Shown: positions 16,781 to 32,662 of the stretch, one piece after another
Position numbering within the stretch: the first letter of the stretch is position 1
Layout: every line of letters begins with the position of its first letter
DNA from: an uncultured delta proteobacterium
Lineage (GTDB): Bacteria > Desulfobacterota > Binatia > Binatales > Binataceae
DNA: 64,000 bases
Assembly: GCA_963842085.1 (NCBI GenBank)
Contig: CAWJET010000001.1
Coordinates: 3,040,001 to 3,104,000, forward strand
Reading direction: 5' to 3'
The notes under the pieces: generated by a model
Database searches by the model: none
What the model was told of the DNA's origin: nothing
Seen by the model: the letters and a program-made list of their open reading frames with translations, nothing else
Made by a program: the position numbers and the translations under genes

Positions 16781-17683
16781 CTAGGCGCGGTACGCTTTGA
16801 ACTCAGATTTTAAGAAGTCGACCAGGCTCTTCGTCTTCGCGGCAAGGTAATTTCGATGCGGAAAGACTGCTGCGATGACTCCCTTCTTGAGTTGCCAATC
16901 TCGCAGCACCTGCACAAGGCGCCCGGCCTTTAGTTCCCGCTTCACGGCGTAGTCGGGTAATAAGCCGATGCCGGCGCCCAGCATAACCAGCTCGCACGCC
17001 GCGATGCCGGTGTTGGTCTTGATCGACGGACGCAGCCGCACGGTGCGCCGCCGGCCGTCGTGATGCTGCATGGTAATCCGCTCGGGATGGGGAAGCTGCG
17101 AAATGCTTATCCATGGATGATCGATCAAATGTTCCGGCTCCTTGGGCTGTGCTCGCTTCGAGAAATACTTCGGTGCGCCGCACACAATCATTTCGAGCGG
17201 TGCGAGCGCAATCGCATGCAACCGGCTATCCACTAGCCAGCCGGCCCGCAGGGCGAGGTCGAAGCCTTCCTCGACAATGTTCACAATCGAGTCTTCCAGG
17301 ACCAGGTCGAAGTCGACTCCTGGGTTGAGCTCCCTGAACTTGCCCAGCGCAGGCAGGAGAAAAGTGAGGCCCAGATTGTAAGGCGCGGTGAGTCGAATGG
17401 TGCCGCGAGGCTGCGTCTTGTGTTCGTCGATGTCAAAGTGAGCCGCCTCCGCTTCGTGAACGACGCGAAGACAGGGCTCATAGAACCTTTGGCCTTCCTC
17501 GGTCAGGGACAACGAACGCGTGCTGCGGTTAAGCAGGCGCGTTCCAAGGCTTTGCTCGAGCGCCTGAACGTGGTGGCTGACAACTGATTTTCCCAACCCG
17601 AGCGCGACCGAGGCAGCCGAAAAGGAACCGCATTCGACTACCTTGGCAAAGATCGCCATGCGGTAGAGATCTTTCAGCATCAT
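16781..17683 (-). CDS. LysR-family regulator (CrgA/DmlR-like), divergent from the isoGHI-like operon
   Basis: FAKVVECGSFSAA...LEQSLGTRLLNRSTRSLSLTEEG, PRGTIRLTAP and NIVEEGFDLALR. Confidence 0.93.
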   Translation of the reverse strand: MMLKDLYRMAIFAKVVECGSFSAASVALGLGKSVVSHHVQALEQSLGTRLLNRSTRSLSLTEEGQRFYEPCLRVVHEAEAAHFDIDEHKTQPRGTIRLTAPYNLGLTFLLPALGKFRELNPGVDFDLVLEDSIVNIVEEGFDLALRAGWLVDSRLHAIALAPLEMIVCGAPKYFSKRAQPKEPEHLIDHPWISISQLPHPERITMQHHDGRRRTVRLRPSIKTNTGIAACELVMLGAGIGLLPDYAVKRELKAGRLVQVLRDWQLKKGVIAAVFPHRNYLAAKTKSLVDFLKSEFKAYRA

Positions 17684-17840
17684 TGTCCAATATTATCGCA
17701 CAGAGTTTATTGAGCAACGATATTGTCCTCTTGCACCGAACTGCCTAGATTACTTGGCCACAGACCCTTTCGCGGTTGTGGAATTGGTCGAACCTCGAAG
17801 GGTAAGTTCGCTCAGCTTCAATCGCGGCTGGAGGAGCACG

Positions 17841-19070
17841 ATGCGCGGACCTCTGGATGGTTATCGAATTCTCGATACCACCACCATGCTGTCCGGTCCT
17901 TGGGCGACGATGATCCTGGCGGACCAGGGCGCCGATGTAATCAAGATCGAGGCGCCCGAGCGTGGCGATCACGTCCGCCATCTCGGCAACCGCCGCGGGG
18001 GGATGTCCGCGATGTTCCTGAACATCAATCGCAACAAGCGCTCGGTCGCGATTGACCTCAAGACCCGGGACGGAGTCGCGTTGCTGAAGCGAATCGCTAT
18101 CAGTGCCGACGTCTTCGTGCAGAACTTCCGGCCGGGAGTCGTTGAACGGCTCGGGATTGGAGAGCGTGACCTTCGCAAAGTCGCGCCTGAAATCATCTAC
18201 GTCTCGATCAGCGGTTTCGGCGAAAACGGGCCTTGGGCTCATAAGCCCGCCTACGATCCGATCATACAGGCGCTGTCGGGTCTTACCACTGTCCAGGGCG
18301 GCTCCGACGCCGAGCGCCCGCGTCTGATTCGCACCGTGTTGGCGGACAAGCTCAGCGCAGTGGTTGCGTCACAAGCGATTACCGCCGCGCTGGTCGCGCG
18401 AGAGCGAACTGGTAAGGGGCAGCACGTCAGGGTCTCGATGCTGGACGCGATGCTCTACTTCCTTTGGGCGTCGGACATGAGCATGCAGACCTACCCGGAT
18501 AATCGTCAGGGGTCTCAAGCGGCGGCGAGCTTCATCGATCTCATTTACGAGACCAGAGACGGTTACATGACCGTAGCGGTAATGAGCGACAAGGAATGGG
18601 CCGGGCTGACCCGCGCGCTGGAGCGCCGTGAATGGCTCGACGATCCGCGGTTCGCAACACCCGTCGCGCGCGACAAAAATGTCGACGAGCGCCTGCACCT
18701 GACCCAGGAAGTGCTGCGCACGCGCACCACCGCCGAATGGATGGAACGCCTCGAGGCTCAGGACGTGCCGTGTGCGCCCGTGTTGACCCGCGACGCAGTG
18801 ACCCGACATCCGCAAGTAATTGCCAGCGACATCGTGGTCGAGCTCGATCACCCAGCTGCCGGGCGTCTCAGGCAAACCCGCGCCCCGGCACGATTCGACA
18901 AGACGCCAGCCTCGATTCGGTTTGGCGCGCCACAGCTCGGCCAGCACACGCGCGAAGTTCTAACCGAGCTTGGGCTGACCGCCCCGGAGGTTCGTGATCT
19001 GGAACTCAAAGGAGTAATCGGCGTCGCCGAGGCGTTAACAAATTCCGAGACCACTACGACTGCGGATTAG
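17841..19070 (+). CDS. isoG: Family III CoA-transferase, IsoG/StyG-like
   Basis: CaiB fold motifs plus QALSGLTTVQGGSD.ERPRLIRTVL.DKL, FLWASDM and SFIDLIYET.DGY, as recalled for Rhodococcus IsoG. First gene of a G-H-I run. Confidence 0.75.
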   Translation: MRGPLDGYRILDTTTMLSGPWATMILADQGADVIKIEAPERGDHVRHLGNRRGGMSAMFLNINRNKRSVAIDLKTRDGVALLKRIAISADVFVQNFRPGVVERLGIGERDLRKVAPEIIYVSISGFGENGPWAHKPAYDPIIQALSGLTTVQGGSDAERPRLIRTVLADKLSAVVASQAITAALVARERTGKGQHVRVSMLDAMLYFLWASDMSMQTYPDNRQGSQAAASFIDLIYETRDGYMTVAVMSDKEWAGLTRALERREWLDDPRFATPVARDKNVDERLHLTQEVLRTRTTAEWMERLEAQDVPCAPVLTRDAVTRHPQVIASDIVVELDHPAAGRLRQTRAPARFDKTPASIRFGAPQLGQHTREVLTELGLTAPEVRDLELKGVIGVAEALTNSETTTTAD

Positions 19071-19118
19071 AGTCCGCGGCCCACGGGCCGGTCGGAACGA
19101 GCGTGAGGAGGAACGCCA

Positions 19119-19793
19119 GTGAGCACAGTACTTGTTGTCGGTGCCGACCGGGGTATTGCGCACGCGATTTGCCTGCAACTGAAGGAGCGCGGAGACGACC
19201 TTATCGCGGCGTGTCTCGGCGAAGGTGCGGACTTGCGCGCGCGCGGCATTCGGGTCGAACCGCAGGTGGATGTTACTTCGGATTCGGCCGTTCGGCGCTT
19301 GGCCGACAGGCTCACGGCTGGGAAAATTCATCTGGATGTGGTGTTTCACGTGGCCGGCGTGCTCGGCCTGGACGAGCTCGGCAAAATCGACTTCGATGAC
19401 GTCCGCCGTCAGTTCGAGATCAACACGCTTGGACCCCTGCGGCTGGTGCAGGCAGTGCTTGGTTGTCTCGGGCCCGGTTCCAAGGTGGGTATCGTGACCA
19501 GCCGCGTCGGCTCGCTCGGTGACAATACGTCGGGCGGCATGTATGCGTACCGAATCTCCAAGGCCGGGGCGAACATGGTAGGCCGCAACTTGTATCACGA
19601 TCTGAAGAAGAAAGGCGTGGCTGTTCTGTTGCTCCATCCAGGTATGGTGAACACCGATCTTACCAGGGGTATTCCCGGCAAATACATTCAGCCCGAAGAG
19701 GCGGCGGCGGGATTGATCAAGAGAATGGACGAACTCACGGTCGAGACTGGCGGCGTGTTCCGGCATGCGAACGGTGAATTACTACCTTGGTAG
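19119..19793 (+). CDS. isoH: SDR dehydrogenase, IsoH/StyH-like (glutathione-conjugate alcohol dehydrogenase)
   Basis: VLVVGADRGIAH, IAACL, RRQFEINTLGPLR, KVGIVTSRVGSLGDNTSGGMY.YRISKA (YxxxK) and LLLHPGMV.TDLT match recalled IsoH. Confidence 0.8.
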   Translation: MSTVLVVGADRGIAHAICLQLKERGDDLIAACLGEGADLRARGIRVEPQVDVTSDSAVRRLADRLTAGKIHLDVVFHVAGVLGLDELGKIDFDDVRRQFEINTLGPLRLVQAVLGCLGPGSKVGIVTSRVGSLGDNTSGGMYAYRISKAGANMVGRNLYHDLKKKGVAVLLLHPGMVNTDLTRGIPGKYIQPEEAAAGLIKRMDELTVETGGVFRHANGELLPW

Positions 19794-19820
19794 CCATTTC
19801 GTTACACGGGGGATATTAGG

Positions 19821-20540
19821 ATGATTACTATCTATCAATACATTCCTGGCTGGAATGTACCCTGCATTAGTCCTTTCGTCACCAAAACTATTTACTACAT
19901 GAGGATGGCTGGCATACCGCATGAAGTTAAGCGGCAGGATCTCAGCCGGCTGCAGCAGGATGCGCCGTACGGAAAGCTGCCTTTTATTGATGACAACGGC
20001 GTCAAGGTCGCGGACTCTACCGCGATCATTGACTATCTGAGGAAATACGCCGACCTGGACAGCGATGCCACTGCAACCGAAAGGGCGCAGATGCTGGCGT
20101 GGAACCGGATGATCGATGAGCATACCTACTGGTGCGCGGTGATTCAGCCCCGCTGGCGCGAAGAAGCCAATTGGGAAATTTATTTGCCGATCATTTTCGG
20201 TGCGAGCCCGGTTCCTCCCGAGGTGCGCCAAACGCTGGAGGAGTTTCGCAAGCTTATTCTATCGGAGTTTCTCGGTCACGGCGTCGGACGTCTGCCGGAC
20301 AACGTCGTCTATGAGCGCGCGCGAGCCGATATCGATGCAATCTCCGACTTTCTGGACTCAAAGCCTTACTTCATGGGCGAAAAGTTGCGCTCGATCGATG
20401 CGAATTTGCTATCGATGCTCGATCACATCATCTATACGCCATTCAAGTTTGACACCAAGGACTACGCGCTCGGCAAGAAAAACCTGGTGGACTACAGCCA
20501 GCGCATGAACAAGCGCTTCGGGAAACCCGAAGCTCGGTGA
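19821..20540 (+). CDS. isoI: Glutathione S-transferase, IsoI/StyI-like (epoxide-conjugating)
   Basis: MITIY.Y.P.W.VP.ISPFVTK, QDL..L.QD.P.GKLP, EH.YW..IQ.RW, RADIDAISDFL..KP and SIDA match recalled IsoI. Confidence 0.8.
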   Translation: MITIYQYIPGWNVPCISPFVTKTIYYMRMAGIPHEVKRQDLSRLQQDAPYGKLPFIDDNGVKVADSTAIIDYLRKYADLDSDATATERAQMLAWNRMIDEHTYWCAVIQPRWREEANWEIYLPIIFGASPVPPEVRQTLEEFRKLILSEFLGHGVGRLPDNVVYERARADIDAISDFLDSKPYFMGEKLRSIDANLLSMLDHIIYTPFKFDTKDYALGKKNLVDYSQRMNKRFGKPEAR

Positions 20541-20679
20541 GCTCGTCATTCGGCTCGAGTGGGTTGCGGTAGCGTCCTATTGGGTTCGCGATCGCAAAGT
20601 CGGCGGGGGATCATCCCGGGGTCCGCACGCTTGACGGGTACGTTTAGACTCCATTATAGGGAAGATAAGGTGCCCTACT

Positions 20680-22689
20680 GTGTCAGAGACTTTTGCGCGA
20701 GGTGATCCTCGTGCGTGGCTAGTATCGCCTTCTGTACGCGATACGTTGGCCCAAATTGCTCGGCAGCGAGATCAATTTCTCTGCGACCTGCCCACCGATG
20801 GCTTGCGGCCTTTGATACGCGACCGATGGAACTTGTGCAAATCAGTCGGAATCGATCCGCATTCTGCGCGTGCGCCTGACGGCCTCACGCGAGAACACAT
20901 CGAAGAAATCCTTCGGGTTGATGATTTTGGACACATCGGCAGGCAAGTCGCTGACGACTTTGCGCGCGTGATCAGCGGCTCGGGACACTATCTGGTATTG
21001 GCTGATCGATCCGGTCGAATCTTTTACGCGGTGGGAGATGATCGCGTGAAGGCGGGCTTGGAGGGGGTTAATTTCATTCCGGGCGGCCTTTGGACGGAGG
21101 AGGCAGTGGGGCCGAATGGAGTGGGAACCGCGTTGGCGACCGCTGCGCCGGTATTCGTGTGGGGTCCCGAGCATTTCTGCGAAGGCTGGCAACCCTGGAT
21201 TTGCTACGGAAGCCCGGTGCGCGACCCTGTCTCCGGTCGCGTGACAGGCGCAGTTGATATTTCGGGCCCGGCTCCAACTAGAAGCGAGATGGCCTTCAAT
21301 CTGACCGTAACCGTGGCTCGAACGATCGAGCGTTCGCTGGGCGCAAGAGCGTTGCAACGGCAGCAAGCGCTGATCGCGGAATTTCTCGCGGCAACCAAAC
21401 GCTGGCCGAACGATGGCATAATCCTGGTGGACGAAAACGGGCGAATATTGGAACTCAATCCCAGGGGCATGGCGCTCCTCAAGCGCGATGTGCGCACCCT
21501 GATGGGGTATCCTTTGAAAGACGCTTCGCCAGAGCTCGACGAGTTCGTTCAACATTGCTGGAAAAATGGCGAGACCCTCGAACGAACAACAGAGCGACAT
21601 GCTACCCAGATTCACGTGCATTGCAGCTTGACGATAGTTGATAGAAAGGCTTCAGGATGTTTGTTGATTTTGCGGTCAGTTGAGCCTTCCCGGCCTCACG
21701 CTTCTCCTCGAGCCGCGAGCGCGATGGCCGTGGAACCGGCAGTGACATTCGCGGACATCAAGGGTCGCGACCCTGCTCTGGTGGCAGCTCTGCACAAGTC
21801 GAGAACGGCCGCGGGAAACGACAAGACGGTGCTGCTCACGGGAGAGACCGGGACCGGTAAGGATCTCTTCGCGCAAGCAATCCATGGTGCGAGCAGACGC
21901 GCCGGCGGTCCATTCGTCGCAATAAACTGCGCGGCGCTGCCGAGCGAGTTGTGCGCGAGCGAGCTTTTCGGATATGCGCGCGGAGCGTTCACCGGAGCAA
22001 AAGCGCACGGCAGTCTGGGTAAATTCGCCCAAGCCAGCGGTGGCACTTTATTTCTCGACGAAATCTCCTCGATGCCATTTGATTTGCAAGCGACGCTGCT
22101 TCGGGCGATCGAGACAAAGAGCGTGACACCGCTGGGATCATCTCGCAGCCAAGCGGTGGACGTCAGAGTCATTGCCGCGGCTAACGAAGAGCTCTCAACC
22201 TTGGTGAACCGTGAGCGGTTTCGAGCGGACCTTTACTACCGTCTCAATGTCATCTCCATCCGATGCCCACCGTTGCGCGGGCGCGCCGAAGACATACTTC
22301 TTTTAGCAAGCGGCTTTCTCAATCAAGGGTGTGGGGAAGTAGGCCGTACGCCTTTGATACTGTCAGAAGAAGTGAAAGATATCCTGGTCCAACATTCCTG
22401 GCCTGGGAACGTACGAGAACTCCAGAATCTGTGTGCCAGATGGATCGAAGAGGTGGAAGCCGACGTTGTATCCTTCTCCGATCTTCCCCCCGAGATGCAA
22501 CCAGAGTCTCCTGCAGTGGCCGCCAAGGAAGTGTCTCTGGCAGACGCAGAAGCTGAATTGATAGTGCGAACAATTAGGGAGTGCAACAACAATATCAGTA
22601 TGGTGGCTCGCCGCCTCGGTGTTTCCAGAGCCACCATTTACAACAAGCTCCGCGTTATACAAGGCGGCAGTGTGAAGAACGGCAACTGA
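20680..22689 (+). CDS. Sigma54-dependent activator, GAF-PAS-AAA+-HTH (AcoR-like)
   Basis: GAF (WTEEAVGPNGVGTAL, EHFC), [31 protein letters not shown] and a Fis HTH. Confidence 0.92.
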   Translation: MSETFARGDPRAWLVSPSVRDTLAQIARQRDQFLCDLPTDGLRPLIRDRWNLCKSVGIDPHSARAPDGLTREHIEEILRVDDFGHIGRQVADDFARVISGSGHYLVLADRSGRIFYAVGDDRVKAGLEGVNFIPGGLWTEEAVGPNGVGTALATAAPVFVWGPEHFCEGWQPWICYGSPVRDPVSGRVTGAVDISGPAPTRSEMAFNLTVTVARTIERSLGARALQRQQALIAEFLAATKRWPNDGIILVDENGRILELNPRGMALLKRDVRTLMGYPLKDASPELDEFVQHCWKNGETLERTTERHATQIHVHCSLTIVDRKASGCLLILRSVEPSRPHASPRAASAMAVEPAVTFADIKGRDPALVAALHKSRTAAGNDKTVLLTGETGTGKDLFAQAIHGASRRAGGPFVAINCAALPSELCASELFGYARGAFTGAKAHGSLGKFAQASGGTLFLDEISSMPFDLQATLLRAIETKSVTPLGSSRSQAVDVRVIAAANEELSTLVNRERFRADLYYRLNVISIRCPPLRGRAEDILLLASGFLNQGCGEVGRTPLILSEEVKDILVQHSWPGNVRELQNLCARWIEEVEADVVSFSDLPPEMQPESPAVAAKEVSLADAEAELIVRTIRECNNNISMVARRLGVSRATIYNKLRVIQGGSVKNGN

Positions 22690-23028: not shown

Positions 23029-23044
23029 CGGCATGACTTTTGCG
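23029..23044 (+). promoter_or_regulatory. Sigma54 (-24/-12) promoter for the aldehyde dehydrogenase
   Basis: CGGCATGACTTTTGCG has exact GG-N10-GC spacing. It lies downstream of an AcoR-like activator and ~125 bp before the ALDH start. Confidence 0.75.
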
Positions 23045-23169: not shown

Positions 23170-24693
23170 ATGGGAGTGACAGTCTCGGAGGAAAAGAAAG
23201 CTGGTGGAGCGGCACCAGCAGCGATCAGCAACTTACTGAACTCGCCAAGGCGTCTGTTAATAGGGGGCAAGTGGGTCGCGGCCAAATCCGGCAAAACCTT
23301 TGAGACCCTCGATCCCGCCACTGAAGAAGTTCTTGCTCAAGTGGCCGAAGGAGACAGACTCGACGTAGATGAAGCTGTCAAGGCAGCTCGCTGTGCGCTC
23401 GACGACGGCGCTTGGCCAAAACTTTCCCCATCCGAGCGCGGACGGCTCATCTGGAAGCTTGGCGATTTGGTTGAGAAGCACGGCGCGGAATTGGCCCAGT
23501 TGGAAAGCCTCGATAACGGCAAGCCGGTCGCAGTGGCCCAGGGGGCTGATGTTCCGCTTTCCGCAGACACTCTCCGCTACATGGCTGGATGGGCGACGAA
23601 GATCGAGGGAAACACGATACCTCTCTCCGTTCCCTACACGCCCGGAGCCCGTTACCTGGCGTACACGGTTCGCGAACCGGTCGGCGTTGTAGGACAGATC
23701 ATTCCCTGGAATTTTCCCTTACTCATGGCCGCATGGAAACTAGGACCAGCTTTGGCCGCGGGATGCACCGTAGTACTGAAACCCGCGGAGCAAACCCCGT
23801 TGACGGCTCTGCGTCTGGGCGAACTTATCATGGAAGCGGGGTTCCCTGATGGCGTCGTAAACATTGTGACCGGATACGGCGAAACGGCCGGCGCGGCGCT
23901 GGCAGCCCACCCCGGAGTCGACAAGGTGGCATTCACCGGTTCGACCGAGGTCGGAAAGTTAATCCTGAAAGCGGCGGCGGGAAACCTGAAAAAAGTCACG
24001 CTGGAGCTCGGCGGAAAGTCGCCCAACGTGGTCTATGCAGACGCCGATCCGGAGTTGGCAATTGCTGGAGCCTCAAGCGCAATTTTCTTCAATCACGGCC
24101 AGTGCTGCTGTGCCGGCTCGCGGCTCTACGTGCAGGAGCAGGCCTTTGATCAAGTTGTTGACGGAGTCTCGAGAGAAGCCAAACGCATCAAGCTGGGCCG
24201 CGGTCTCGACCCGGAGACGCAGATGGGTCCTCTAGTGTCGGACGAACAATTGAAGCGGGTGACCGGGTATATTGCATCCGGACTGGAACAAGGTGCGAAG
24301 GCGGTAACCGGCGGAGGCCGGATCGGACGCTCGGGCTATTTTGTTGAACCCACGGTGTTGGTGAACACGCGAGCCGACATGAAGGTTGTCCAGGAGGAAA
24401 TCTTTGGGCCGGTGGTATGCGCTATCCCATTCAAGAGCGAAGAAGAGATCGTTCAGGCTGCGAACGATACGATCTACGGGCTCGCCGCCGGAATATGGAC
24501 CCGCGATGTAGGTAAAGCGCATTCTCTGGCCGCGAAACTGCGCGCGGGCACCGTCTGGGTCAACTGCTACAACATTTTCGATGCAGCAATGCCGTTCGGG
24601 GGCTACAAGCAATCCGGATGGGGCCGGGAGCAGGGTCACGAAGTGCTTGAACATTACACTGAGAGCAAGTCGGTCTGCGTCCGGATCGACTAG
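23170..24693 (+). CDS. NAD-dependent aldehyde dehydrogenase (phenylacetaldehyde DH/DhaS-like subfamily)
   Basis: IIPWNFPL, KPAEQTP, FTGSTEVG, LELGGKSP, catalytic GQCCCAG, EEIFGPV and FGGYKQSG. Confidence 0.95.
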   Translation: MGVTVSEEKKAGGAAPAAISNLLNSPRRLLIGGKWVAAKSGKTFETLDPATEEVLAQVAEGDRLDVDEAVKAARCALDDGAWPKLSPSERGRLIWKLGDLVEKHGAELAQLESLDNGKPVAVAQGADVPLSADTLRYMAGWATKIEGNTIPLSVPYTPGARYLAYTVREPVGVVGQIIPWNFPLLMAAWKLGPALAAGCTVVLKPAEQTPLTALRLGELIMEAGFPDGVVNIVTGYGETAGAALAAHPGVDKVAFTGSTEVGKLILKAAAGNLKKVTLELGGKSPNVVYADADPELAIAGASSAIFFNHGQCCCAGSRLYVQEQAFDQVVDGVSREAKRIKLGRGLDPETQMGPLVSDEQLKRVTGYIASGLEQGAKAVTGGGRIGRSGYFVEPTVLVNTRADMKVVQEEIFGPVVCAIPFKSEEEIVQAANDTIYGLAAGIWTRDVGKAHSLAAKLRAGTVWVNCYNIFDAAMPFGGYKQSGWGREQGHEVLEHYTESKSVCVRID

Positions 24694-24807: not shown

Positions 24808-25617
24808 TCAGAGCTGCGAATCGTAGTAGCCGCGTACCGTACGGTCGGGAAGTTCAACCACTGGATGGGCGCACAGCGCACCCAGCGTCATCGCGGAATC
24901 AAATCGATCGATGTGGTACTGGCAGATCATTGCGACCTGCGGATATTTGTCTGCCAAGCGGTTGAGCCGTCGTTCGTAGTCAAGAATCCCCGATACCCCA
25001 TTTGCACCCGAGCAGTACCAGGACATCTCGCCCGTAATCAGCGCCTTGCTTTTGCCTCCCGACAGCATTTCCTGGACGGATTTCTCGACGAACGCGAGCA
25101 TCGCGTCCGCACAGAAGCCGCCGTCGCGCAGATAGGCTTCGGAGGAGGGCACCGCTCGCAACACACCTCGGCGAGTCAGCTCGTCGGGGTCCGTCCCTTC
25201 CGAACGCAACAGGCTCATCAGGCGTGCGCGGGGAGTGCTGTCGTAGATATAGAGAATCGGCGCTCCAAGGCGCACGTACTTAAGCAGGTACGGGCGGAAC
25301 ATCCGGAACTGCTCTTCCTCACTAGAGTAATGCAGACTGATGTGGCTGTCGTTGCTCGGCTGCTGCAAGCCAACCTGCGGCCGAGGCCCGTCGATGGCGA
25401 CGGTGGGCGTCGTCGATTGACCACAATTGGCGCCTCCGGGGGCCAAAAAAGCTTCCAATTCGGCCTTTGCGAAGCGCCTTTCGCCGCGGAGGCCGACTCG
25501 AAAGCATCGCAGGCGGCCAGTGTTGGTCCAACGGCGCAACGAGATCTTACTCACTTTCAGAAAGCGCGCGGCTTCTTCGATGGTCAGTATGTTCGAATCT
25601 TCCAGCATCTCGATCAC
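24808..25617 (-). CDS. DcmR-like regulator: HTH_17 (Xis/MerR-like) plus MEDS sensory domain
   Basis: LTIEEAARFLKVSKISLRRWTNTGRL...GERRF HTH. MEDS motifs HISLHY, AYLRDGGF, LITGEMSW, YERRLN, ICQY and HP. Confidence 0.85.
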   Translation of the reverse strand: MIEMLEDSNILTIEEAARFLKVSKISLRRWTNTGRLRCFRVGLRGERRFAKAELEAFLAPGGANCGQSTTPTVAIDGPRPQVGLQQPSNDSHISLHYSSEEEQFRMFRPYLLKYVRLGAPILYIYDSTPRARLMSLLRSEGTDPDELTRRGVLRAVPSSEAYLRDGGFCADAMLAFVEKSVQEMLSGGKSKALITGEMSWYCSGANGVSGILDYERRLNRLADKYPQVAMICQYHIDRFDSAMTLGALCAHPVVELPDRTVRGYYDSQL

Positions 25618-25695
25618 ACAAGCTCTGCTAATAACGACATTGGAGCAATTTAACCCGAACTGCTAACCTCAAGCAAACTGCGAATGACCAAATTC

Positions 25696-25881: not shown

Positions 25882-26859
25882 ATGAAGACGACGCTACGGC
25901 AGGTTCAGATTTCGTGGCTGGCTGCAACACTCTTAATCGGGTGTTTGCTTTTCCCGACGGGAGCACGCGCCGGCAGCGCCGCAGGGGATCCGAGTGTGAA
26001 GCAAATGCTGCGGCAGGTGGAGCAAAGGCTCGACACAGTGGAGCAGGAGAATCAGTCCCTTCGGCAGCAGGTCCTCGAATTACGGCAGCAGGTCAATACG
26101 CAGGCTCCCACTGTCTCCGCGATGCAGCAACATATGACGCAGGTAATGCCTCAGACAGAACAGCGTGTCGCCAACATGGAGAGAGAGCAGGAAGCTTCGG
26201 ACCAGCAAGTTGCGAGTCTGAAGCAGAAGGTTGAATCGCCGTTCAAAGGCAGCGCGCTCGGGTTTAGGGCCGGATGGTCAGAAGTACCATTCGACCTGCC
26301 CGGCGGTTTCTTTTGGGACATGCATCTCGGCCATCGATTATTCGAGCAGCGGGACGGAATCCCGTTTGGCGATATCAATGGCGAGCTCGCGATCGGCCTG
26401 ATTCAGGGCAATCATGAGCCGATAACACTGAGCACGCTTGCCGGCACCCCTCTTGCGCATCCCGTGAATACTCAAGCTGATGTGTCGCTGGTTACCGTCG
26501 CTCCGACCGTTCGGTACACGCTCAGGGCCTTGGAGCCATTTGAACCTACCGTGTTTGCTGGTCCTGAAATCCTTATCAATCTGTTCGAATTCAGCCCGCT
26601 AAATGCGGGTCAGCTGCCGATACCGCCCCAACTCAGTCAGAGGGGTATCCCTACTATCGGTAGCGGGCACGTTTTTGCGGGTGCGGTATTCGGCGCGGAT
26701 CTTCAGTACCGGCTGTCTGATATCGCTTCTGCGCTGAATATTCCAGCGTCTGAGCGGTTTTTCTCGAAAATCACGGTGGGGCCGGAATGGCGGTACCACG
26801 CAATGGAGAATGGCGAGAACTTCCAATCTTACAGCGGTGAGATTACCATTGGTTTTTGA
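25882..26859 (+). CDS. Outer-membrane beta-barrel protein with an N-terminal periplasmic coiled coil
   Basis: Signal peptide (ARA), a ~80-aa Gln-rich coiled coil, amphipathic beta strands and a C-terminal Bam signal GEITIGF. Confidence 0.75.
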   Translation: MKTTLRQVQISWLAATLLIGCLLFPTGARAGSAAGDPSVKQMLRQVEQRLDTVEQENQSLRQQVLELRQQVNTQAPTVSAMQQHMTQVMPQTEQRVANMEREQEASDQQVASLKQKVESPFKGSALGFRAGWSEVPFDLPGGFFWDMHLGHRLFEQRDGIPFGDINGELAIGLIQGNHEPITLSTLAGTPLAHPVNTQADVSLVTVAPTVRYTLRALEPFEPTVFAGPEILINLFEFSPLNAGQLPIPPQLSQRGIPTIGSGHVFAGAVFGADLQYRLSDIASALNIPASERFFSKITVGPEWRYHAMENGENFQSYSGEITIGF

Positions 26860-27129: not shown

Positions 27130-27969
27130 ATGGCGACTGAATCGGCAAGAGCGGAACTAACCGAAGTTAAGAAGAGTGACAAACTGTCCTGGAACTGGAT
27201 TAACCCGAAAATCATGATCGTGGGCGTCGCAGCGCTCACCGTGTTCTATGTTTCACTGCGGCTTTACCAGCAGAAGTTTGCATGGAGCATGGGACTGGAC
27301 TCGACCTCACCTGAGTTCAAGACCTACTGGATGAATCTGCAGTACGCGCTTTGGGCGTTTGAGATGCTCTTGGCGGCGTCACTGTGGAGCTGGGTATGGT
27401 TGACTCGCCCTAACGATCTAGATCGGCTCGAGCCCAAGGAAGAGATGCGGCGGCTGGGCGTATTGATAGCGATTATCGCTGTGTATGTGTTCGCGGTGTT
27501 CTGGGCCGGCAGCTTCTTCGCCGAAGAGGACGCGGTCTGGCATCAGACCGTTGTTCGCGACACCTCGTTCACGCCCAACCATATAATCCTCTTTTATACC
27601 ACCTTCCAAGTTTATATCGCTATCGGCGTGACGGCTTACCTGTACGCGAGGACGCGGTTGCCGCGTTTCGCGGCCCGGCATTCAATTCCGTTTGTAATCG
27701 CTGTTGCTGGACCTTTCATGCTGCTGCCGGTCGTCGGCTACAACGAGTGGATGCATTCCTTCGTTATTCTCGAGGAGCGTTTTACGGCTCCGGTGCACTA
27801 CGGGTTCGTACTTTTCGGGTGGACGGGGTTCGGTCTTGGTGGTCTGCTTCTTCAGATCTGCGACTACATCTATGAGCTGACCACCGGAAAGGCGCAGACC
27901 TACAACAAGGGCGAACCGGCATCCGATCCGGCGCTCGATTTCGAGACCGATGTTCCAAAGGTTGCTTAA
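27130..27969 (+). CDS. pmoC: Copper membrane monooxygenase subunit C (PmoC/AmoC family)
   Basis: GLDSTSPEFKTYW. The Cu_C ligands lie in EEDAVWHQTVVRDTSFTPNH and the Cu_D ligands in NEWMH...APVHYGFV. AAGGAGG RBS. Confidence 0.95.
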   Translation: MATESARAELTEVKKSDKLSWNWINPKIMIVGVAALTVFYVSLRLYQQKFAWSMGLDSTSPEFKTYWMNLQYALWAFEMLLAASLWSWVWLTRPNDLDRLEPKEEMRRLGVLIAIIAVYVFAVFWAGSFFAEEDAVWHQTVVRDTSFTPNHIILFYTTFQVYIAIGVTAYLYARTRLPRFAARHSIPFVIAVAGPFMLLPVVGYNEWMHSFVILEERFTAPVHYGFVLFGWTGFGLGGLLLQICDYIYELTTGKAQTYNKGEPASDPALDFETDVPKVA

Positions 27970-28008
27970 AGGCGGTTTCAACTGATCTGAGCACCACTGA
28001 TTGATTTT

Positions 28009-28036
28009 GGGTCCGGGCCGATACTGGTCCGGACCC
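28009..28036 (+). terminator. GC-rich stem-loop between pmoC and pmoA (mRNA stabiliser or partial terminator)
   Basis: GGGTCCGGGCC-gatact-GGTCCGGACCC inverted repeat. Confidence 0.55.
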
Positions 28037-28096
28037 CAGCAGACGCGAACGGTTTGGCTCTTCGAACACACGAGATTTGACTCGGGAGGAATAATC

Positions 28097-28861
28097 ATGG
28101 CGGCTGGACTTCAGGCTCGCACAAAGACGGCATTCGACACGCCTGAGGAGATGCGGAAAGCGTATCGCCAGTTCGACTTGGTCGTGGCGGTCATCCTCTT
28201 CTTCCTGTTCATAGCGCTTTACCACATAACGGCGATGCTGACGATCGGTGACTGGGATTTTTGGGCGGATTGGAAAGACCGGCGGTGGTGGATCACTGTG
28301 ACGCCGACTCTTCTAATCGCCATGCCCGCAGCAGCTCAGTACATCTTCTGGGGCAAGTTCCGTCTCCCGTTTGCTGCTACGCTTCTGACCTTCTGCCTGG
28401 TCAGTGCCGAATGGCTGAACCGGGTGGCCAACATGCACGGTTGGGCGTACTTCCCCATCGATTTCGTATGGCCGGCGACGCTGATTCCGTCGGGAATAGC
28501 ACTTGACTGTGTCCTGATGTTGACCGGCAGTTACGTGATGACGGCGATAATCGGGGGTGGGATTTGGTCGTTTTTGTTTTACCCAACGAACTGGGTGATG
28601 CTGGCGCGGTACATGCAGCCTACCAACATGCACGGGTTCCTGATGTCGCTGGCCGACGTAATGGGCTATCAGTTTGTGAGAACCGGAACCCCCGAATATT
28701 TGCGCTACATCGACCGCGGGACGCTGCGCTCGTTTGGCGAGGATCCGATCTATATATCTATGGCCTTCGCGGCGTTTGCCTGCATGCTCATTTACATGAT
28801 CTTCGTCGGCGTGGGATATCTTTTTACGAGAAGTCAGTTCAGTTGGCTTAAGCGCATATAA
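28097..28861 (+). CDS. pmoA: Copper membrane monooxygenase subunit A (PmoA/AmoA family)
   Basis: YHITAMLTIGDWDFWADWKDRRWW..VTP, FRLPF.AT, EWLNR, LFYPTNW and SLAD..GY..VRTGTPEYLR.IDRGTLR.FG. Confidence 0.95.
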   Translation: MAAGLQARTKTAFDTPEEMRKAYRQFDLVVAVILFFLFIALYHITAMLTIGDWDFWADWKDRRWWITVTPTLLIAMPAAAQYIFWGKFRLPFAATLLTFCLVSAEWLNRVANMHGWAYFPIDFVWPATLIPSGIALDCVLMLTGSYVMTAIIGGGIWSFLFYPTNWVMLARYMQPTNMHGFLMSLADVMGYQFVRTGTPEYLRYIDRGTLRSFGEDPIYISMAFAAFACMLIYMIFVGVGYLFTRSQFSWLKRI

Positions 28862-28917
28862 CCTATCGATCAACATCGCGAAGCGGCCATCAACTTCAGA
28901 GAAGCGCGGTTAATCAA

Positions 28918-30204
28918 ATGCATTCGAAAAGGTTAGGTTGGAAAGCTTTGGCGGTAAGCGCCTCAGCACTGTCCTTTATCCTGGCACTGAGCATGGCAGT
29001 CGTGGCGGTGCCTGGAACGGCTGCTGCACACGGCGAGCGCGCTGAGCCTCCGTTTCTCAGGATGTCCACCATCCAATGGTACGATACGCACTGGTCCTCG
29101 ACCCACGTCAAAGTGAACGAGGAGATGACCATAACCGGGCGTTTTCACGTCGTGAAGAACTGGTCTTTCGCGATCGCCGCGCCCGACCTGGCGTTTCTGA
29201 ACGTGGACGTGCCCGGGCCGGTTATGGTCCGCATGGCCAGCACCATTGACGGGGTCAACGGCGCCGCTTCGACGCCGCTCGAACTCGGCAGGGACTACGA
29301 ATATACGATCGTCCTTCGCGGCAGGATCCCGGGACGCTACCATGTTCATCCGATGTTGGACGTGCGCGACGCCGGTCCGCTTCTGGGTCCGGGTGATTGG
29401 GTCACAGTTGACGGAGATGCGGCGACTTTCACAGACCCGATTACGACGCTCACGGGTGAAAAGCTGGACTTGGCGCACTACGGGATGAGTGGCGTCGTGA
29501 GCTGGCACGTGCTGTGGGGATTGATGGCGGTGGCATGGCTGCTGTACTGGATTGCCAAACCGTTGTTGATGCCCAGATACGAAGCTCTGCAGCACGGCGA
29601 GGGTGAGAAACTGGTAACCCTTACCGATAGGATCGTGGCTGTTGGGTTTCTCGGCGCGACAATATTGATCGTACTCTTCGGCGCGATGGTCACCCGCGTG
29701 TGGTATCCAGTGACCATCCCATTGCAGTCCACTTGGCTGCGGATTCCTCCTTTGCCCAAGCAGCCGGATACCATTACCATGACTTCGGATAGCGTGATCT
29801 ACTACATTCCCGGCCGCACCGTGGAATTCTCGGTAAAAGTCACTAACAATGGCACCAAGCCGGTACAGATCGGCGAGTTCACCACGGCGGCGGTGAGATT
29901 TCTGAATTCATCGATCCGCCAGCCCGAACCTGACTATCCTCCAGAACTGATTGCCCCGGCCGGCCTGGTGGTCGAGCCGAATGAACCGATTCAGCCGGGA
30001 GAGACCAAGGCGCTTCATATCCTGGCCAGCAGCCCGGTCTGGGAAACCGATCGACTGGCGTTGCTGATAGCCGATCCGACCAGCCGAATCGGCGGGCTGT
30101 TCATGTTCTTTGATCCGGACAACAACCGCACTATGGTGGAGTTCGACAGCGAGATTATGCCGACCTTCGTCCGTCCACCGGCTGCGGCGGCGACGACGAG
30201 CTAG
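28918..30204 (+). CDS. pmoB: Copper membrane monooxygenase subunit B (PmoB/AmoB family)
   Basis: Signal peptide, then mature N-terminal HGE, FLRM.T..WYD, the Cu_B motif GRYHVHPM, GP..GPG, YPVTIPLQ, YYIPGR, GEFTTA.VRFLN and W.T.RL. Confidence 0.95.
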   Translation: MHSKRLGWKALAVSASALSFILALSMAVVAVPGTAAAHGERAEPPFLRMSTIQWYDTHWSSTHVKVNEEMTITGRFHVVKNWSFAIAAPDLAFLNVDVPGPVMVRMASTIDGVNGAASTPLELGRDYEYTIVLRGRIPGRYHVHPMLDVRDAGPLLGPGDWVTVDGDAATFTDPITTLTGEKLDLAHYGMSGVVSWHVLWGLMAVAWLLYWIAKPLLMPRYEALQHGEGEKLVTLTDRIVAVGFLGATILIVLFGAMVTRVWYPVTIPLQSTWLRIPPLPKQPDTITMTSDSVIYYIPGRTVEFSVKVTNNGTKPVQIGEFTTAAVRFLNSSIRQPEPDYPPELIAPAGLVVEPNEPIQPGETKALHILASSPVWETDRLALLIADPTSRIGGLFMFFDPDNNRTMVEFDSEIMPTFVRPPAAAATTS

Positions 30205-30238
30205 GGGTCAGAGTGCTGATCGATCCAGGGAGGCAACG

Positions 30239-30835
30239 GTGAGCCGCAAAATCAGTTTGGTCGCGGGTTTGCTGTTAGGCTTGGCGTACGCTGGATCGGC
30301 GTGGGCGCACGGCGGTGGCCCTGGACTCAGCTACGACCCCTGCGCGCAGCGGGTCGGCTTGTACTACGTCCACATGGCGGTCTACCAGCCGCAGGTTGAC
30401 AGTAGTCAGGAATACTGCGGCAAGATACCGCGTGGTGGCGACACTCTCATGGTATTCGACCTGGTGGGAACCGAGATGCGCCACACACCGGTAGCAGTTA
30501 ATATACTCGAAACTGGCGGGCGCTCGGGAAGCTACGTGGTGGCCTCGGTTCCCGAGGGCGAACATGTATCCGGCGTCATCGACATCAACCTTCCGCTGCA
30601 AGCAGGGCACAGTTATCAGGCGGTCGTCACGGTGGGTGAGGCGCCGGCGAATTACACTATTACCTTTCCAATCAGCGTCAACGCCTGGTGGAACGGGCTT
30701 GAACTGCCGGGGCTGCTGGTTCTCGTCGTACTCGGGGGTTCGATCTTTTACGGTCTCAGGCTCCGACGGGAGCATTTGGTCACGCAGCGCAAGGCCGAGA
30801 TGCGCACCCGTATTCGCGCTGTCGGCAGCGGCTGA
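30239..30835 (+). CDS. pmoD: PmoD/AmoD-family periplasmic copper protein with a C-terminal TM anchor
   Basis: AWAHGG, DPC.....VH..YQP, EYC..IP..G.TL.VFDLV...R..PV. Directly follows pmoB. Confidence 0.85.
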   Translation: MSRKISLVAGLLLGLAYAGSAWAHGGGPGLSYDPCAQRVGLYYVHMAVYQPQVDSSQEYCGKIPRGGDTLMVFDLVGTEMRHTPVAVNILETGGRSGSYVVASVPEGEHVSGVIDINLPLQAGHSYQAVVTVGEAPANYTITFPISVNAWWNGLELPGLLVLVVLGGSIFYGLRLRREHLVTQRKAEMRTRIRAVGSG

Positions 30836-30885
30836 GAGCTGTTCAATTGATTCTTTTGGACGATCGGACGACCAGGACGGTTTTT

Positions 30886-31536
30886 ATGTCAGAACGAGTT
30901 GTTTACATCGAATCATTGTTGTCTGTGTTGAGGCCACGGATGGCAAATGCTCTAGCGCTTGCAATTCTGCTGTGTTGCGCCGCTTGCTCTCCTCCTCCAA
31001 CGGACTCGGCGGCGCCGCTGGGGCCGGGCCTGTCCGGCGTGTCGCCGAAGCTGTTGCTCTACAACCAGAACGCGCAACCGGTGGAAGCGGGATCAATGAC
31101 GGGACGCCCCATAATAATCGCGTTCATCGATACATCTTGCACGGGAATGTGTCGGCTTACCACGAACAAACTACGCCGGGTGGCAGACGACCTCGGAGCG
31201 GAGCAGAAGCAGAAAGTTCAATTTGTGCTGGTAACTTATAACCCGGTATTCGACGGTCCCAAGCGTCTCAGACAGTACGCGCAGGACATGCACCTCGATA
31301 CCCCGCACTGGATGCTGTTGACAGGCACGCCTGCCAATATTGACTGGATGCTTGGGCGCTTCGGGTTGCCGGCGGTCGGGAATTTTGAGGAGCCGGCGCA
31401 ACTGATGGACGCACTTGACTACGTGTTCCTGGTCGCGCCTGACGGCAAGATCGTGAAGAAGTACAAAGGCGGGGATTTCGTAACCACCGCAGTTGCGCAG
31501 GACGCGCGCCAGGTACTGAACAAAGGCGCCTCATAG
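30886..31536 (+). CDS. SCO1/SenC-family copper chaperone (lipoprotein)
   Basis: FIDTSCTGMC (CxxxC), VTYNP..DGP..L..Y, W..LTG and FLVAPDG. Lipobox-like CAAC. Confidence 0.85.
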   Translation: MSERVVYIESLLSVLRPRMANALALAILLCCAACSPPPTDSAAPLGPGLSGVSPKLLLYNQNAQPVEAGSMTGRPIIIAFIDTSCTGMCRLTTNKLRRVADDLGAEQKQKVQFVLVTYNPVFDGPKRLRQYAQDMHLDTPHWMLLTGTPANIDWMLGRFGLPAVGNFEEPAQLMDALDYVFLVAPDGKIVKKYKGGDFVTTAVAQDARQVLNKGAS

Positions 31537-31648
31537 AAGCGCATCTCACTACTCAGTACTTCTTTAAGAATGGCTATTCTGATTGGCTAGTGCATCTGAC
31601 TCATCTGATACTCACAACACGAATCCTAACGAAAATGGGTGACTAATT

Positions 31649-32662
31649 ATGAAAGCGGCAGTAATTAAAACATTCGGCAAGCCACTAACTATCGAGGATC
31701 TCCCGAAGCCACAACCCGGCCCCGGCCAGGTGGTGGTCAAGATTGAGACTTCCGGCCTTTGCCATACCGATATCCACGCCGCCCACGGCGACTGGCCCGT
31801 GAAGCCCAAGCTCCCGCTGGTGCCGGGGCATGAAGGCGTTGGAATCGTTGAGCGGCTTGGCCCCGGGGTTTCGGAGGTGAAGGAAGGAGATCGCGTCGCG
31901 ATTCCGTGGTTGGGCTACGCGTGCGGCGCATGTGAGTACTGTGGGTCGGGTCGGGAGACGCTGTGCGAGCAGCAACTATGCACTGGCTATTTCATTGATG
32001 GTAGCTACGCCGAATACGCGCTGGCTTATGGGAAATACGTCTGCAAGGTGCCCAAGGGAGTAGATCCGTGGGTGGCGGCTCCGCTCACATGTGCCGGTGT
32101 CACCACCTACAAGGCGGTGAAGGTGGCCGGTGCCAGATCGTCCGACCTGGTCGCCATTTTCGGTATCGGCGGGCTGGGGCATTTGGCGCTTCAGTATGCG
32201 CGGATTGCGGGCGCGACGGTGGTGGCGGTGGATGTTCTCGACGATAAACTTGAACTCGCCAAGGAACTCGGCGCGCGTTACACGATCAATGCGCGCAACG
32301 AAGATCCAGCGGAGGCGCTCAAGAAGCTCGGCGGCGCCGACAGCGCAGTGGTGGTCGCAGTGTCGCCACAAGCCTACACCAGCGCCTACCAGGGACTCCG
32401 TCGCGGCGGCAAGCTGGTGTTCGTCGGACTGCCGGCGGACAACTCCGTGCAGATCCCGATCTTCGAGACCGTGCTCAATGGGATCTCGATCGCCGGCTCG
32501 GTAGTCGGTACGCGGGTAGATCTCGCGGAGACCTTCGAGCTGCAAGCCTCGGGCATGACCAAGGTTATCTACGAAAAGCGCAAACTCGAGCAGGTCAACG
32601 AGGCGTTCAACGAAGTTGAGGATGGTCGCGTGCGCGCCCGCCTCGTGTTTGGGATGAACTGA
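31649..32662 (+). CDS. adhP: Zn-dependent NAD+ alcohol dehydrogenase (AdhP-like)
   Basis: GLCHTD, PGHEGVG, CGACEYC...LC, APLTCAGVT and GIGGLG. Confidence 0.93.
   Translation: MKAAVIKTFGKPLTIEDLPKPQPGPGQVVVKIETSGLCHTDIHAAHGDWPVKPKLPLVPGHEGVGIVERLGPGVSEVKEGDRVAIPWLGYACGACEYCGSGRETLCEQQLCTGYFIDGSYAEYALAYGKYVCKVPKGVDPWVAAPLTCAGVTTYKAVKVAGARSSDLVAIFGIGGLGHLALQYARIAGATVVAVDVLDDKLELAKELGARYTINARNEDPAEALKKLGGADSAVVVAVSPQAYTSAYQGLRRGGKLVFVGLPADNSVQIPIFETVLNGISIAGSVVGTRVDLAETFELQASGMTKVIYEKRKLEQVNEAFNEVEDGRVRARLVFGMN

Follow-up and report, generated by a model that had tools for sequence, protein, structure and literature searches.

Among the systems described so far, one of the closest to the locus presented here is the isoprene cluster isoABCDEF-isoGHIJ-aldH of Rhodococcus sp. 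AD45 and Variovorax sp. WS11, in which isoABCDEF encode a soluble di-iron monooxygenase (SDIMO). The pathway of this iron enzyme, the isoprene monooxygenase (IsoMO), was stated in 2025 to be the only pathway for isoprene breakdown that had to date been given a detailed description (PMC12141778). In WS11 the activities of IsoI, which converts epoxyisoprene to HGMB, the glutathione conjugate 1-hydroxy-2-glutathionyl-2-methyl-3-butene, and of IsoH, which converts HGMB to an acid, were demonstrated, MBP fusions having served for their expression, and IsoG is by prediction a CoA-transferase that forms the CoA thioester (PMC10057887). The present analysis concerns a window of 64,000 nucleotides (the whole stretch of DNA analysed; contig CAWJET010000001.1, positions 3,040,001 to 3,104,000) from a soil bacterium assigned to Candidatus Binatus (Binatia), an uncultured genus; its genome comprises 4.93 Mb in two contigs with a completeness score of 100%. 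An island at 16781-32662 of this window contains orthologues of isoG, isoH and isoI beside the operon of a copper membrane monooxygenase (CuMMO). The comparison of the island with the WS11 locus showed that they have in common the LysR-isoG-isoH-isoI unit, its gene order and, by prediction, a glutathione-dependent chemistry starting from an epoxide. They differ in that the window genome lacks isoABCDEF and has a CuMMO as the neighbour, that neither isoJ nor an iso-type aldH is found in the island, and that the iso genes and the oxygenase of the window lie in separate operons.

A second related system is styGHIJ of Gordonia rubripertincta CWB2 (plasmid pGCWB2), in which a G/H/I module serves an oxygenase that is not an SDIMO, the styrene route of this strain starting with a flavin monooxygenase. 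The CWB2 cluster also encodes gshA, gshB, a second glutathione S-transferase (GST) and an aldehyde dehydrogenase (ALDH) of its own, and its oxygenase is a flavin enzyme, whereas that of the window is a copper enzyme. The removal of a CuMMO-made epoxide by a thiol-dependent pathway is on record for the coenzyme-M systems of Methylohalobius crimeensis, with its particulate methane monooxygenase (pMMO), and of Haliea ETY-M and ETY-NAG; in Methylohalobius the system acts against epoxyethane made by the pMMO (PMC11507031). That pathway uses coenzyme M as its thiol and unrelated enzymes (EtnE type), whereas here the thiol would be glutathione, and the window cassette would be the glutathione counterpart of the Methylohalobius system. 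The abbreviation MEDS, borne by a domain of one of the island regulators, also occurs in the abbreviation list of that paper (PMC11507031). The short-chain alkane CuMMOs (Nocardioides CF8, the butane/hydrocarbon enzymes of Mycobacterium, and the betaproteobacterial xmoCABD) resemble the window in that xmoCAB(D) stands near alcohol and aldehyde dehydrogenases with no methylotrophy genes, and a short-chain alkane role was proposed for part of the Binatales CuMMOs (PMC8262859). No glutathione epoxide module beside such operons is reported in the texts on them that were consulted (e.g. PMC8262859, PMC6215863).

No description of iso genes beside a CuMMO was found in the main texts of open-access papers and in bioRxiv, and the suggestion that the pairing was undescribed, made in the original prediction from the sequence of the island, is borne out to that extent. 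The papers containing both iso and CuMMO terms are isoprene reviews and surveys, and PMC12141778 uses PmoA only as a tBLASTn query for pMMO. The words isoprene and epoxide are absent from the main text of the Binatota genome paper (PMC8262859), and the word glutathione from the CuMMO evolution paper (PMC6215863) and the Methylohalobius paper (PMC11507031). The iso downstream module, the CuMMO family and the feeding of a thiol-dependent epoxide pathway (coenzyme M) by a CuMMO are thus known already; what appears to be new is that the glutathione/Iso module is paired with a CuMMO and that this pairing has been assembled repeatedly and independently.

The identity of the iso module was established by profile scores and trees. 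IsoI scored 332.7 bits against model NF049950 (cut-off 300; model positions 1-237 of 238) and IsoH 374.3 bits against NF049951 (cut-off 350) over its full length, both models being equivalogs. No NCBIfam model reached its cut-off with IsoG, which was placed by a tree that combines 43 IsoG sequences of iso loci with 37 family III CoA-transferase paralogues of its own genome; it fell inside the IsoG clade, apart from all the paralogues (SH-aLRT 94), the best of which is 49% identical. Identities to the WS11 proteins (locus L017) are 69% for IsoG, 65% for IsoH and 61% for IsoI, and those to StyG, StyH and StyI of Gordonia rubripertincta CWB2 are 57%, 59% and 41.5%, respectively. The 42 positions of IsoI that do not vary among 13 homologues are all kept, and the IsoI tree places the window protein among its counterparts from iso clusters, at a shorter distance from the proteobacterial Iso proteins than from the Sty proteins. 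The assignment of the three proteins to IsoG, IsoH and IsoI in the original prediction thus stands, as does its start for isoG at ATG 17841: the open reading frame (ORF) opens at 17754, and the alignment with WS11 IsoG begins at 17841, behind a GGAGG motif. The 37 paralogues besides isoG (tblastn, E<=1e-20, more than 330 residues), one of which is located at 4558-5823 of the window, represent in themselves an unusually large expansion.

The divergent LysR gene belongs to the same unit. In 22 of 32 genome loci the gene immediately upstream of isoG is a LysR gene 41-55% identical to that of the window, the WS11 copy being 50% identical, and the window gene has no second tblastn match at E<=1e-5 in its own genome. 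The order of a divergent LysR followed by isoG-isoH-isoI is the one seen in WS11 and in most other loci. The ALDH gene of the island does not belong to the unit. Its presence had been predicted correctly; the protein is 38% identical to WS11 AldH and, judged from its sequence, is not an iso-type aldH. A better match to WS11 AldH (51%) is encoded at C1:1466135-1467511, a 60% identical paralogue of the island ALDH is found on contig C2, its best NCBIfam model is StyD (693.7 bits, under the cut-off of 850), and the gene is missing from the related loci L055, L056 and L057.

The genes pmoC, pmoA and pmoB are contiguous on the plus strand and constitute the sole CuMMO operon of the genome. Their closest matches in the PDB are true pMMO subunits, namely Methylocystis PmoC (242 bits) and M. 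capsulatus PmoA (262 bits) and PmoB (388 bits); PmoA shares 49% identity with its counterpart in Methylogaea oryzae and 85% with that of a Candidatus Binatus sp. The start of pmoA is probably at 28097 (M33 of the ORF), as deduced from a 93% identical homologue. In the phmmer alignment of PmoC to 3rfr the ligand positions D..H..H and N..H..H are kept, and these Asp/His/His and Asn/His/His positions we take to be its metal sites. PmoB, aligned to 3rgb, retains both the HVH motif and the N-terminal His that follows the signal peptide, the copper ligands of PmoB being His33, His137 and His139 in M. capsulatus numbering (PMC8262859). As far as can be judged from these residues, the CuMMO looks functional.

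The protein encoded after pmoB has no Pfam match, and the Atlas gave unnamed clusters and a YtkA lead (0.88). Its AlphaFold2 model (mean predicted local distance difference test score, pLDDT, 81.4) found as best PDB fold the soluble domain of PmoD, 6cpd (E 5.5e-9; template modelling score, TM, 0.70 on the target; sequence identity 21%), the next fold match having E 5.7e-4, and PmoD-like homologues follow pmoB in both CuMMO lineages discussed below. This match, based on a predicted structure, and the adjacent SCO1 gene suggest that the operon is an xmoCABD operon with a copper chaperone. For the putative beta-barrel protein encoded upstream of pmoC the nearest Atlas clusters were 'porin family protein' (0.95) and OMP_b-brl, which provide a lead only; the protein is 78-84% identical in L055, L056 and L057. 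The PmoD-like, SCO1 and beta-barrel proteins and the sigma-54 activator of the island are additions to the original prediction.

The genome was searched for other oxygenases. The SDIMO domain PF02332 had no match in the complete genome, and the same search recovered IsoA and IsoE in WS11 as a positive control; tblastn with WS11 IsoA and IsoE likewise gave no genome match at E<=1e-5. The StyA domain PF17885 had no match either, in a search that had no positive control and is hence weak evidence of absence. The prediction that the window contains no di-iron or flavin monooxygenase was therefore confirmed and, for the PF02332 enzymes, extended to the genome, and the possibility that an SDIMO iso cluster elsewhere accounts for the iso genes was not borne out in this genome of 100% completeness. 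Among the oxygenase kinds searched for, the CuMMO is the only candidate epoxide source in the genome. The cosubstrate of the module also appears to be available: gshB is present (TIGR01380, 381.3 bits, cut-off 299), together with a plant-type gshA just under its cut-off (TIGR01436, 459 bits against 463.15, positions 2-445 of 446; GCS2 PF04107, 218.8 bits), and the E. coli-type gshA is absent from the genome. By these profile matches glutathione biosynthesis genes are present, and an absence of glutathione synthesis, which would have spoken against the prediction, was not observed.

The similarity of the CuMMO to pMMO subunits raises the question whether the host is a methanotroph, with the CuMMO as its pMMO and isoGHI in the role of the coenzyme-M pathway of Methylohalobius crimeensis. 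The PDB matches and the resemblance to the Methylogaea PmoA would fit such an organism; moreover, one of the Binatales CuMMO types has been linked to a soil cluster thought to be methane-oxidising (PMC8262859), and there is the detoxification precedent of PMC11507031. However, the best score for a pyrroloquinoline quinone (PQQ) methanol/alcohol dehydrogenase in this complete genome was 22.5 bits (TIGR03075; the mdh2 and mno types were not searched for), and no match was obtained for Fae or Mch, the search controls being positive. The lack of these three argues against methanotrophy, and the AdhP-type alcohol dehydrogenase of the operon suits alcohols of two or more carbons, so that the methanotroph explanation is regarded as highly improbable.

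In order to see how often the pairing occurs, one genome per species was scanned with an IsoI alignment pattern, partners being sought within 10 kb, and metagenome contigs were scanned with the IsoI of the window as the seed. The first scan gave 32 loci, with an adjacent SDIMO in 19, neither oxygenase in 12 and a CuMMO in one (L015). The second gave 45 loci, ten with a CuMMO within reach, five with an SDIMO and 30 others, mostly on short contigs; the 10:5 ratio of CuMMO to SDIMO is biased towards relatives of the window, because its own IsoI seeded the scan. The CuMMO-linked loci fall into four groups. The first (L055, L056, L057) consists of close relatives with proteins 88-96% identical and the arrangement LysR-isoGHI, MEDS regulator, outer-membrane protein (OMP) gene and pmoC(AB); L057 extends through PmoD, SCO1, AdhP and the molybdenum hydroxylase, with the cytochrome c gene at its left. 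The second is a more distant Binataceae-type locus, L082 (799-5490), in which isoI alone (76% identical) stands divergent from pmoCABD. The same Binataceae-type isoI (75-80% identical), without upstream isoH or isoG, occurs in L014, L059, L060 and L088: no isoH was found in the 0.5-0.9 kb upstream of isoI in L059 and L088, and neither isoG nor isoH over 6.2 kb upstream in L014.

The third and fourth groups are of Burkholderiales type. The third contains L063 (identical to L015), L069, L070 and L067. In L015, from a metagenome-assembled genome (MAG) of Burkholderiales, LysR-isoG-isoH-isoI (isoI ending at 8686) is followed after 170 bases by pmoC (starting at 8857), pmoA and pmoB, a PmoD-like gene, copC and a copD-cytochrome c fusion; its CuMMO is 41-46% identical to that of the window, and no SDIMO was found in the MAG behind it. 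The arrangement LysR-isoGHI-pmoCABD-copCD is common to L015, L069 and L070, and L067 has isoH-isoI-isoJ-pmoCAB. The fourth group, a second Burkholderiales type (L068, L073), contains isoGHI, an aldH 79-80% identical to that of WS11, a TodX/FadL channel, pmoCABD and copCD. The channel, an outer-membrane hydrocarbon channel of the TodX/FadL family located between aldH and pmoC (L073:12701-14182), is matched in position by the unrelated putative beta-barrel protein of the window, which suggests that the two operons come with uptake channels of their own.

Two further loci were found in genomes. A 78-kb contig of a Methylibium MAG (G063:C76; loci L104 and L018) has pmoCABD around 5.7-9.3 kb and, 19 kb from this CuMMO, isoGHIJ-aldH around 24-29 kb; the 10 kb on each side of isoI contain no SDIMO. 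In the congener G017 (C62:14252-22724; L053, L054) a 116-base piece of isoG (window 18846-18961) abuts pmoA codon 88 (window 28262), the cassette and pmoC being lost by deletion; the fusion is followed by about 80% identical pmoB, SCO1, adhP and molybdenum hydroxylase genes with many broken reading frames. The G017 locus is either a decayed copy of the island or an error-rich (indel) assembly of it. The linkage, of which it was asked whether it recurs in relatives, is thus found in three close metagenome relatives, in the decayed remnant of G017 and, independently, in two Burkholderiales lineages.

The arrangement in the window is not an assembly chimera, because L055, L056 and L057, which come from other metagenomes, bridge isoI to pmoC; the concern voiced in the original prediction can be set aside. 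Furthermore, 72-99% of the words sampled from 19100-29000 were found in seven soil runs of two studies, in which the population is nearly identical; one of these runs may be the source of the window DNA, and the contigs of four of the seven runs covered all 30 bins of 15500-33500 with even depth.

The trees showed that the pairing did not arise once. In the IsoI tree the CuMMO-linked loci are located in three separate clades, and the IsoI of L068 and L073 nest inside an SDIMO-linked betaproteobacterial clade, beside an SDIMO-linked contig. Three changes of partner, counted on the IsoI tree only, were needed in 200 of 200 bootstrap trees (32 rows with a known partner), and a single clade of the ten CuMMO-linked rows was rejected at a cost of 42.4 log-likelihood units (approximately unbiased (AU) test, p-AU 0.0026), a test that is somewhat weakened because the group was named after the first tree had been viewed. 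In the PmoA tree the window type belongs to a 14-row clade with other Binatia, and the Burkholderiales types to a distant 40-row clade near the PmoA2 of an ethane oxidiser. By these trees the partnership has been assembled more than once from different parts, and this repeated assembly is the main argument for the pairing being functional.

It bears directly on the possibility that adjacency carries no flux, i.e. that isoGHI serve other epoxides or conjugates (environmental, lipid or terpene compounds, or other electrophiles) and that the CuMMO is an alkane-only enzyme acquired on a common island. The two transcription units with different regulators would be expected in that case, a low-GC island could have gathered unrelated cargo, and the 19 kb that separate the CuMMO from isoGHIJ-aldH in the Methylibium MAG may be seen in the same light. 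The 12 of 32 genome loci that have isoGHI with no SDIMO or CuMMO within 10 kb indicate as well that the cassette can stand beside other partners. However, chance can hardly account for a pairing that is found in no fewer than three clades of IsoI and in two CuMMO clades far apart from each other, in several gene orders including direct abutment, and the genome holds no further epoxide-forming oxygenase of the kinds searched for. Adjacency without flux is therefore considered quite unlikely. An iso/sty-type module with no SDIMO or CuMMO within 10 kb was also noted in L018, L022, L023, L025, L038, L039, L040 and L045: isoGHI are present in seven of the eight, L045 having isoI and a weak isoH match, aldH in all but L039 and isoJ in all but L045. 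Further oxygenase partners of such modules may exist.

A different possibility is a dedicated growth pathway. The CuMMO would then stand in for IsoABCDEF as a genuine monooxygenase of isoprene (or of ethene, propene or butadiene), with the epoxide as its chief product, and IsoI, IsoH and IsoG would be the main carbon route into central metabolism. For the Burkholderiales contigs a dedicated alkene or isoprene monooxygenase would be the more natural reading, as in L015, L069, L070, L067, L068 and L073 the CuMMO takes, in one operon, the place that isoABCDEF has in canonical clusters, the IsoI of L068 and L073 is nested among SDIMO-linked betaproteobacterial sequences, and the genome behind L015 lacks an SDIMO. 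Ethylene-assimilating Haliea with a CuMMO are on record (PMC6215863, PMC11507031), and the window genome is without methanol dehydrogenase and tetrahydromethanopterin (H4MPT) genes in the searches made. In the window, however, the CuMMO is followed by AdhP and a molybdenum hydroxylase, for which an epoxide route has no need; the cassette is separately regulated and lacks isoJ and an iso-type aldH, and the related isoI-only lineage cannot support assimilation by the known route. Nor does an isoI or isoG orthologue stand beside the CuMMO operon in any of eight more distant relatives of the class, which also speaks against a dedicated pathway, although this absence counts little for three of the eight because their contigs end 0.5-1.7 kb upstream of pmoC. 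These relatives are the seven best after G000 and G017 (G199, G183, G136, G071, G114, G025, G312) and the Binataceae MAG G067, with PmoA 45-65% identical. It follows that the CuMMO lineage would mostly work without the cassette, which joins only the nearest sub-clade of the window. A dedicated pathway in the window is accordingly rated as rather doubtful, and a similar reserve applies to the wider proposal that one CuMMO clade of the Binatia and a separate one of the Burkholderiales are genuine isoprene or alkene monooxygenases supporting growth through IsoGHI, which we would call tentative and somewhat unlikely.

The accessory nature of the cassette is also apparent from its distribution. Any CuMMO at all was found in 6 of 47 genomes of the genus, IsoI above its cut-off in 1 of 25 Binatus genomes, that of the window itself, and a PmoA match at E<=1e-60 in 35 genomes in a draw of 401 of the class. 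The tallies for the genus include the unpublished genomes G018 and G023 and the draw of 401 includes G018, neither gene being present in either. The part of the island made up of the CuMMO, AdhP and molybdenum hydroxylase is conserved both with and without iso genes. The GC content of the 16-kb region is 0.574, compared to 0.615 for the genome, and lies in the lowest 2.7% of 16-kb windows, which is consistent with acquisition by transfer. A second CuMMO type (36-38% PmoA identity to that of the window; L048-L052 and L102) was observed in the Binatus genomes G012, G013, G015, G017 and G054 and in the Binataceae MAG G067; both types are present in G017 and G067, and this fits the two Binatales clades of PMC8262859.

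In the explanation that we prefer, a single CuMMO forms the basis of the island, a unit for the oxidation of short-chain hydrocarbons, to which the portable LysR-isoGHI cassette has been added as an accessory for epoxides. An add-on role is favoured in Binatus because the cassette has its own regulation, lacks isoJ and an iso-type aldH, is represented in a related lineage by isoI alone and is missing from distant relatives. This explanation, which draws on gene content and conservation, is given about an even chance; a real coupling of the CuMMO to the iso genes of one kind or the other, add-on and dedicated pathway taken together, is considered probable. Several points weigh against it. The genes isoGHI are transcribed separately from pmoCABD, 6.6 kb away, and the two units have different regulators. 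No isoJ match was found in the window, in agreement with the original prediction, and the best matches in the genome are three GSTs, 42-46% identical to IsoJ/StyJ, at unlinked sites on C1; an iso-type aldH is likewise absent from the island, and isoJ and aldH have each been called essential in isoprene degraders (PMC10057887). To these may be added the bias of the seeded contig scan, the truncated contigs of three relatives and the fact that several of the Burkholderiales contigs, which have a common name prefix, may be from one sample set.

The conserved core of the island is OMP-xmoCABD-SCO1-AdhP-molybdenum hydroxylase; in the preferred explanation it would be under the control of the MEDS regulator, and its ordinary products would be alcohols. 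The CuMMO would hydroxylate saturated substrates, and AdhP, followed by ALDH or the molybdenum hydroxylase, would carry the alcohols to acids. With unsaturated substrates, such as isoprene or C2-C4 alkenes, the same enzyme would form epoxides. Such a side activity has parallels, as pMMO and ammonia monooxygenase (AMO) are reported to co-oxidise alkenes and organisms possessing them to oxidise isoprene (PMC12141778), and alkene epoxidation by CuMMOs is described (PMC6215863). IsoI would then open the epoxide ring with glutathione, IsoH would convert the hydroxy-conjugate to an acid, and IsoG would form the CoA thioester for further breakdown, the LysR regulator turning the cassette on upon the appearance of the epoxide or the conjugate. 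The role of the cassette here would be the salvage or detoxification of epoxides, perhaps with a gain of extra carbon and energy, and it would not be the reason for the existence of the CuMMO. The idea put forward in the original prediction, that a third oxygenase chemistry feeds the IsoGHI pathway, is supported in so far as none of the in silico tests that could refute it went against it; we infer the flux from CuMMO to IsoI from synteny only, and the catalytic steps, the substrate and the regulation are inferences as well.

The gene calls, which are based on the ORF listing and on Pfam and NCBIfam profile scans of the window, are collected in Table 1. The LysR, CoA-transferase, short-chain dehydrogenase/reductase (SDR), GST, ALDH, HTH-MEDS and pmoCAB genes were all found where they had been predicted or within a few bases.

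Table 1. Genes of the iso-CuMMO island and its conserved neighbours; positions refer to the 64,000-nucleotide window.
Feature	Position	Strand	Evidence
Cytochrome c, conserved left-hand neighbour	16032..16604	+	Pfam Cytochrome_CBB3/Cytochrom_C; 83% identical copy at the same position in L057
LysR-type regulator, divergent from isoG	16781..17683	-	Pfam HTH_1 and LysR_substrate
isoG orthologue (family III CoA-transferase)	17841..19070	+	Pfam CoA_transf_3, E 1.8e-120
isoH orthologue (SDR; 1-hydroxy-2-glutathionyl-2-methyl-3-butene dehydrogenase family)	19119..19793	+	NCBIfam NF049951 equivalog
isoI orthologue (epoxide-glutathione S-transferase family)	19821..20540	+	NCBIfam NF049950 equivalog
Sigma-54 activator with GAF and PAS sensor domains, variable insert	20680..22689	+	Pfam Sigma54_activat, PAS_4, GAF, HTH_8
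Aldehyde dehydrogenase (ALDH), variable insert	23170..24693	+	Pfam Aldedh, E 3.9e-182
HTH_17 and MEDS-domain regulator, divergent from OMP-pmo operon	24808..25617	-	Pfam MEDS, E 1.6e-34; HTH_17, E 3.7e-12
Putative outer-membrane beta-barrel protein, directly upstream of pmoC	25882..26859	+	Signal peptide, coiled coil, C-terminal ...ITIGF
pmoC (CuMMO subunit C)	27130..27969	+	Pfam AmoC, E 4e-83, 279 bits
pmoA (CuMMO subunit A)	28097..28861 (ORF 28001-28861)	+	Pfam AMO, E 1.7e-86, 290.5 bits
pmoB (CuMMO subunit B)	28918..30204	+	Pfam Monooxygenase_B, E 2.2e-139, 465.3 bits
PmoD-like protein: periplasmic beta-sandwich and C-terminal membrane helix	30242..30835	+	AlphaFold2 fold match
SCO1/SenC copper chaperone	30847..31536	+	Pfam SCO1-SenC, E 1.4e-19; conserved in L057 and G017
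AdhP-type zinc alcohol dehydrogenase	31649..32662	+	NCBIfam NF006940 AdhP equivalog, 352.9 bits (cut-off 344)
Molybdenum hydroxylase small, large and FAD subunits and CoxG, conserved right-hand neighbour	32831..37112	+	Pfam Fer2_2, MoCoBD_1/2, FAD_binding_5, COXG

The conservation of these genes is not uniform. AdhP is found in L057, with 96% identity, as well as in G017, and the molybdenum hydroxylase region, which possibly encodes an aldehyde oxidoreductase, is about 80% identical at the nucleotide level in G017 and is present in L057 as well. The MEDS regulator keeps its position in L055, L056, L057 and L058, and the sigma-54 activator is found in L055 and L056 (91% identity) and is absent from L057 and L058. 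A scan for the sigma-54 consensus TGGCAC-N5-TTGCW with at most two mismatches gave 34 matches where 28.05 were expected, a number reached in 13 of 100 shuffles, and no match in that scan was located upstream of the ALDH gene, the OMP gene or pmoC. A plus-strand ORF at 24706-25653 was considered as a conserved protein and rejected: it has no family match, its arginine-rich translation resembles an antisense frame, and it shadows the minus-strand gene of the MEDS regulator.

Outside the island, the minus strand of the window contains at 4558-12972 a second molybdenum hydroxylase set (two large, 2Fe-2S and FAD subunits) with a CoA-transferase and an enoyl-CoA hydratase, and further downstream, at 47873-55537, a pilus cluster of the Tad/Flp type. 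Between the cytochrome c gene and LysR there is an element of about 127 bp (16658-16784) resembling a miniature inverted-repeat transposable element (MITE), with 17-bp terminal inverted repeats, of which 18 copies with 98-100% identity are distributed over both contigs of the genome. The contigs of three soil runs skip 16657-16781, so that the element is polymorphic and was probably active recently.

Uncultured soil bacteria of three or more lineages thus combine the downstream glutathione module with a copper enzyme, and in two of their genomes a di-iron monooxygenase is lacking altogether. The coupling can be tested by inhibitors that tell copper from iron monooxygenases, by stable-isotope probing and by GST assays. 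Environmental surveys count isoprene degraders by isoA and, if the coupling is real, isoA-based counts of alkene and isoprene consumers would be incomplete and some soil pmoA-like sequences would have been misread as those of methane oxidisers. The CuMMO type of the Binatales that is closer to pMMO may correspond to the upland-soil pmoA cluster discussed in PMC8262859; if so, and if the growth reading holds, part of this long-unassigned cluster would stand for the use of alkenes and not of methane. Under the growth reading, a copper-based second route would exist for the soil sink of isoprene and alkenes, one to which isoA probes are blind and which pmoA surveys log as 'methanotroph-like'. A real coupling would also mean that IsoGHI is a general mobile epoxide module, seen by now with iron, flavin and copper oxygenases, and that a glutathione-based equivalent of the coenzyme-M system of methanotrophs may let alkane oxidisers cope with alkenes.

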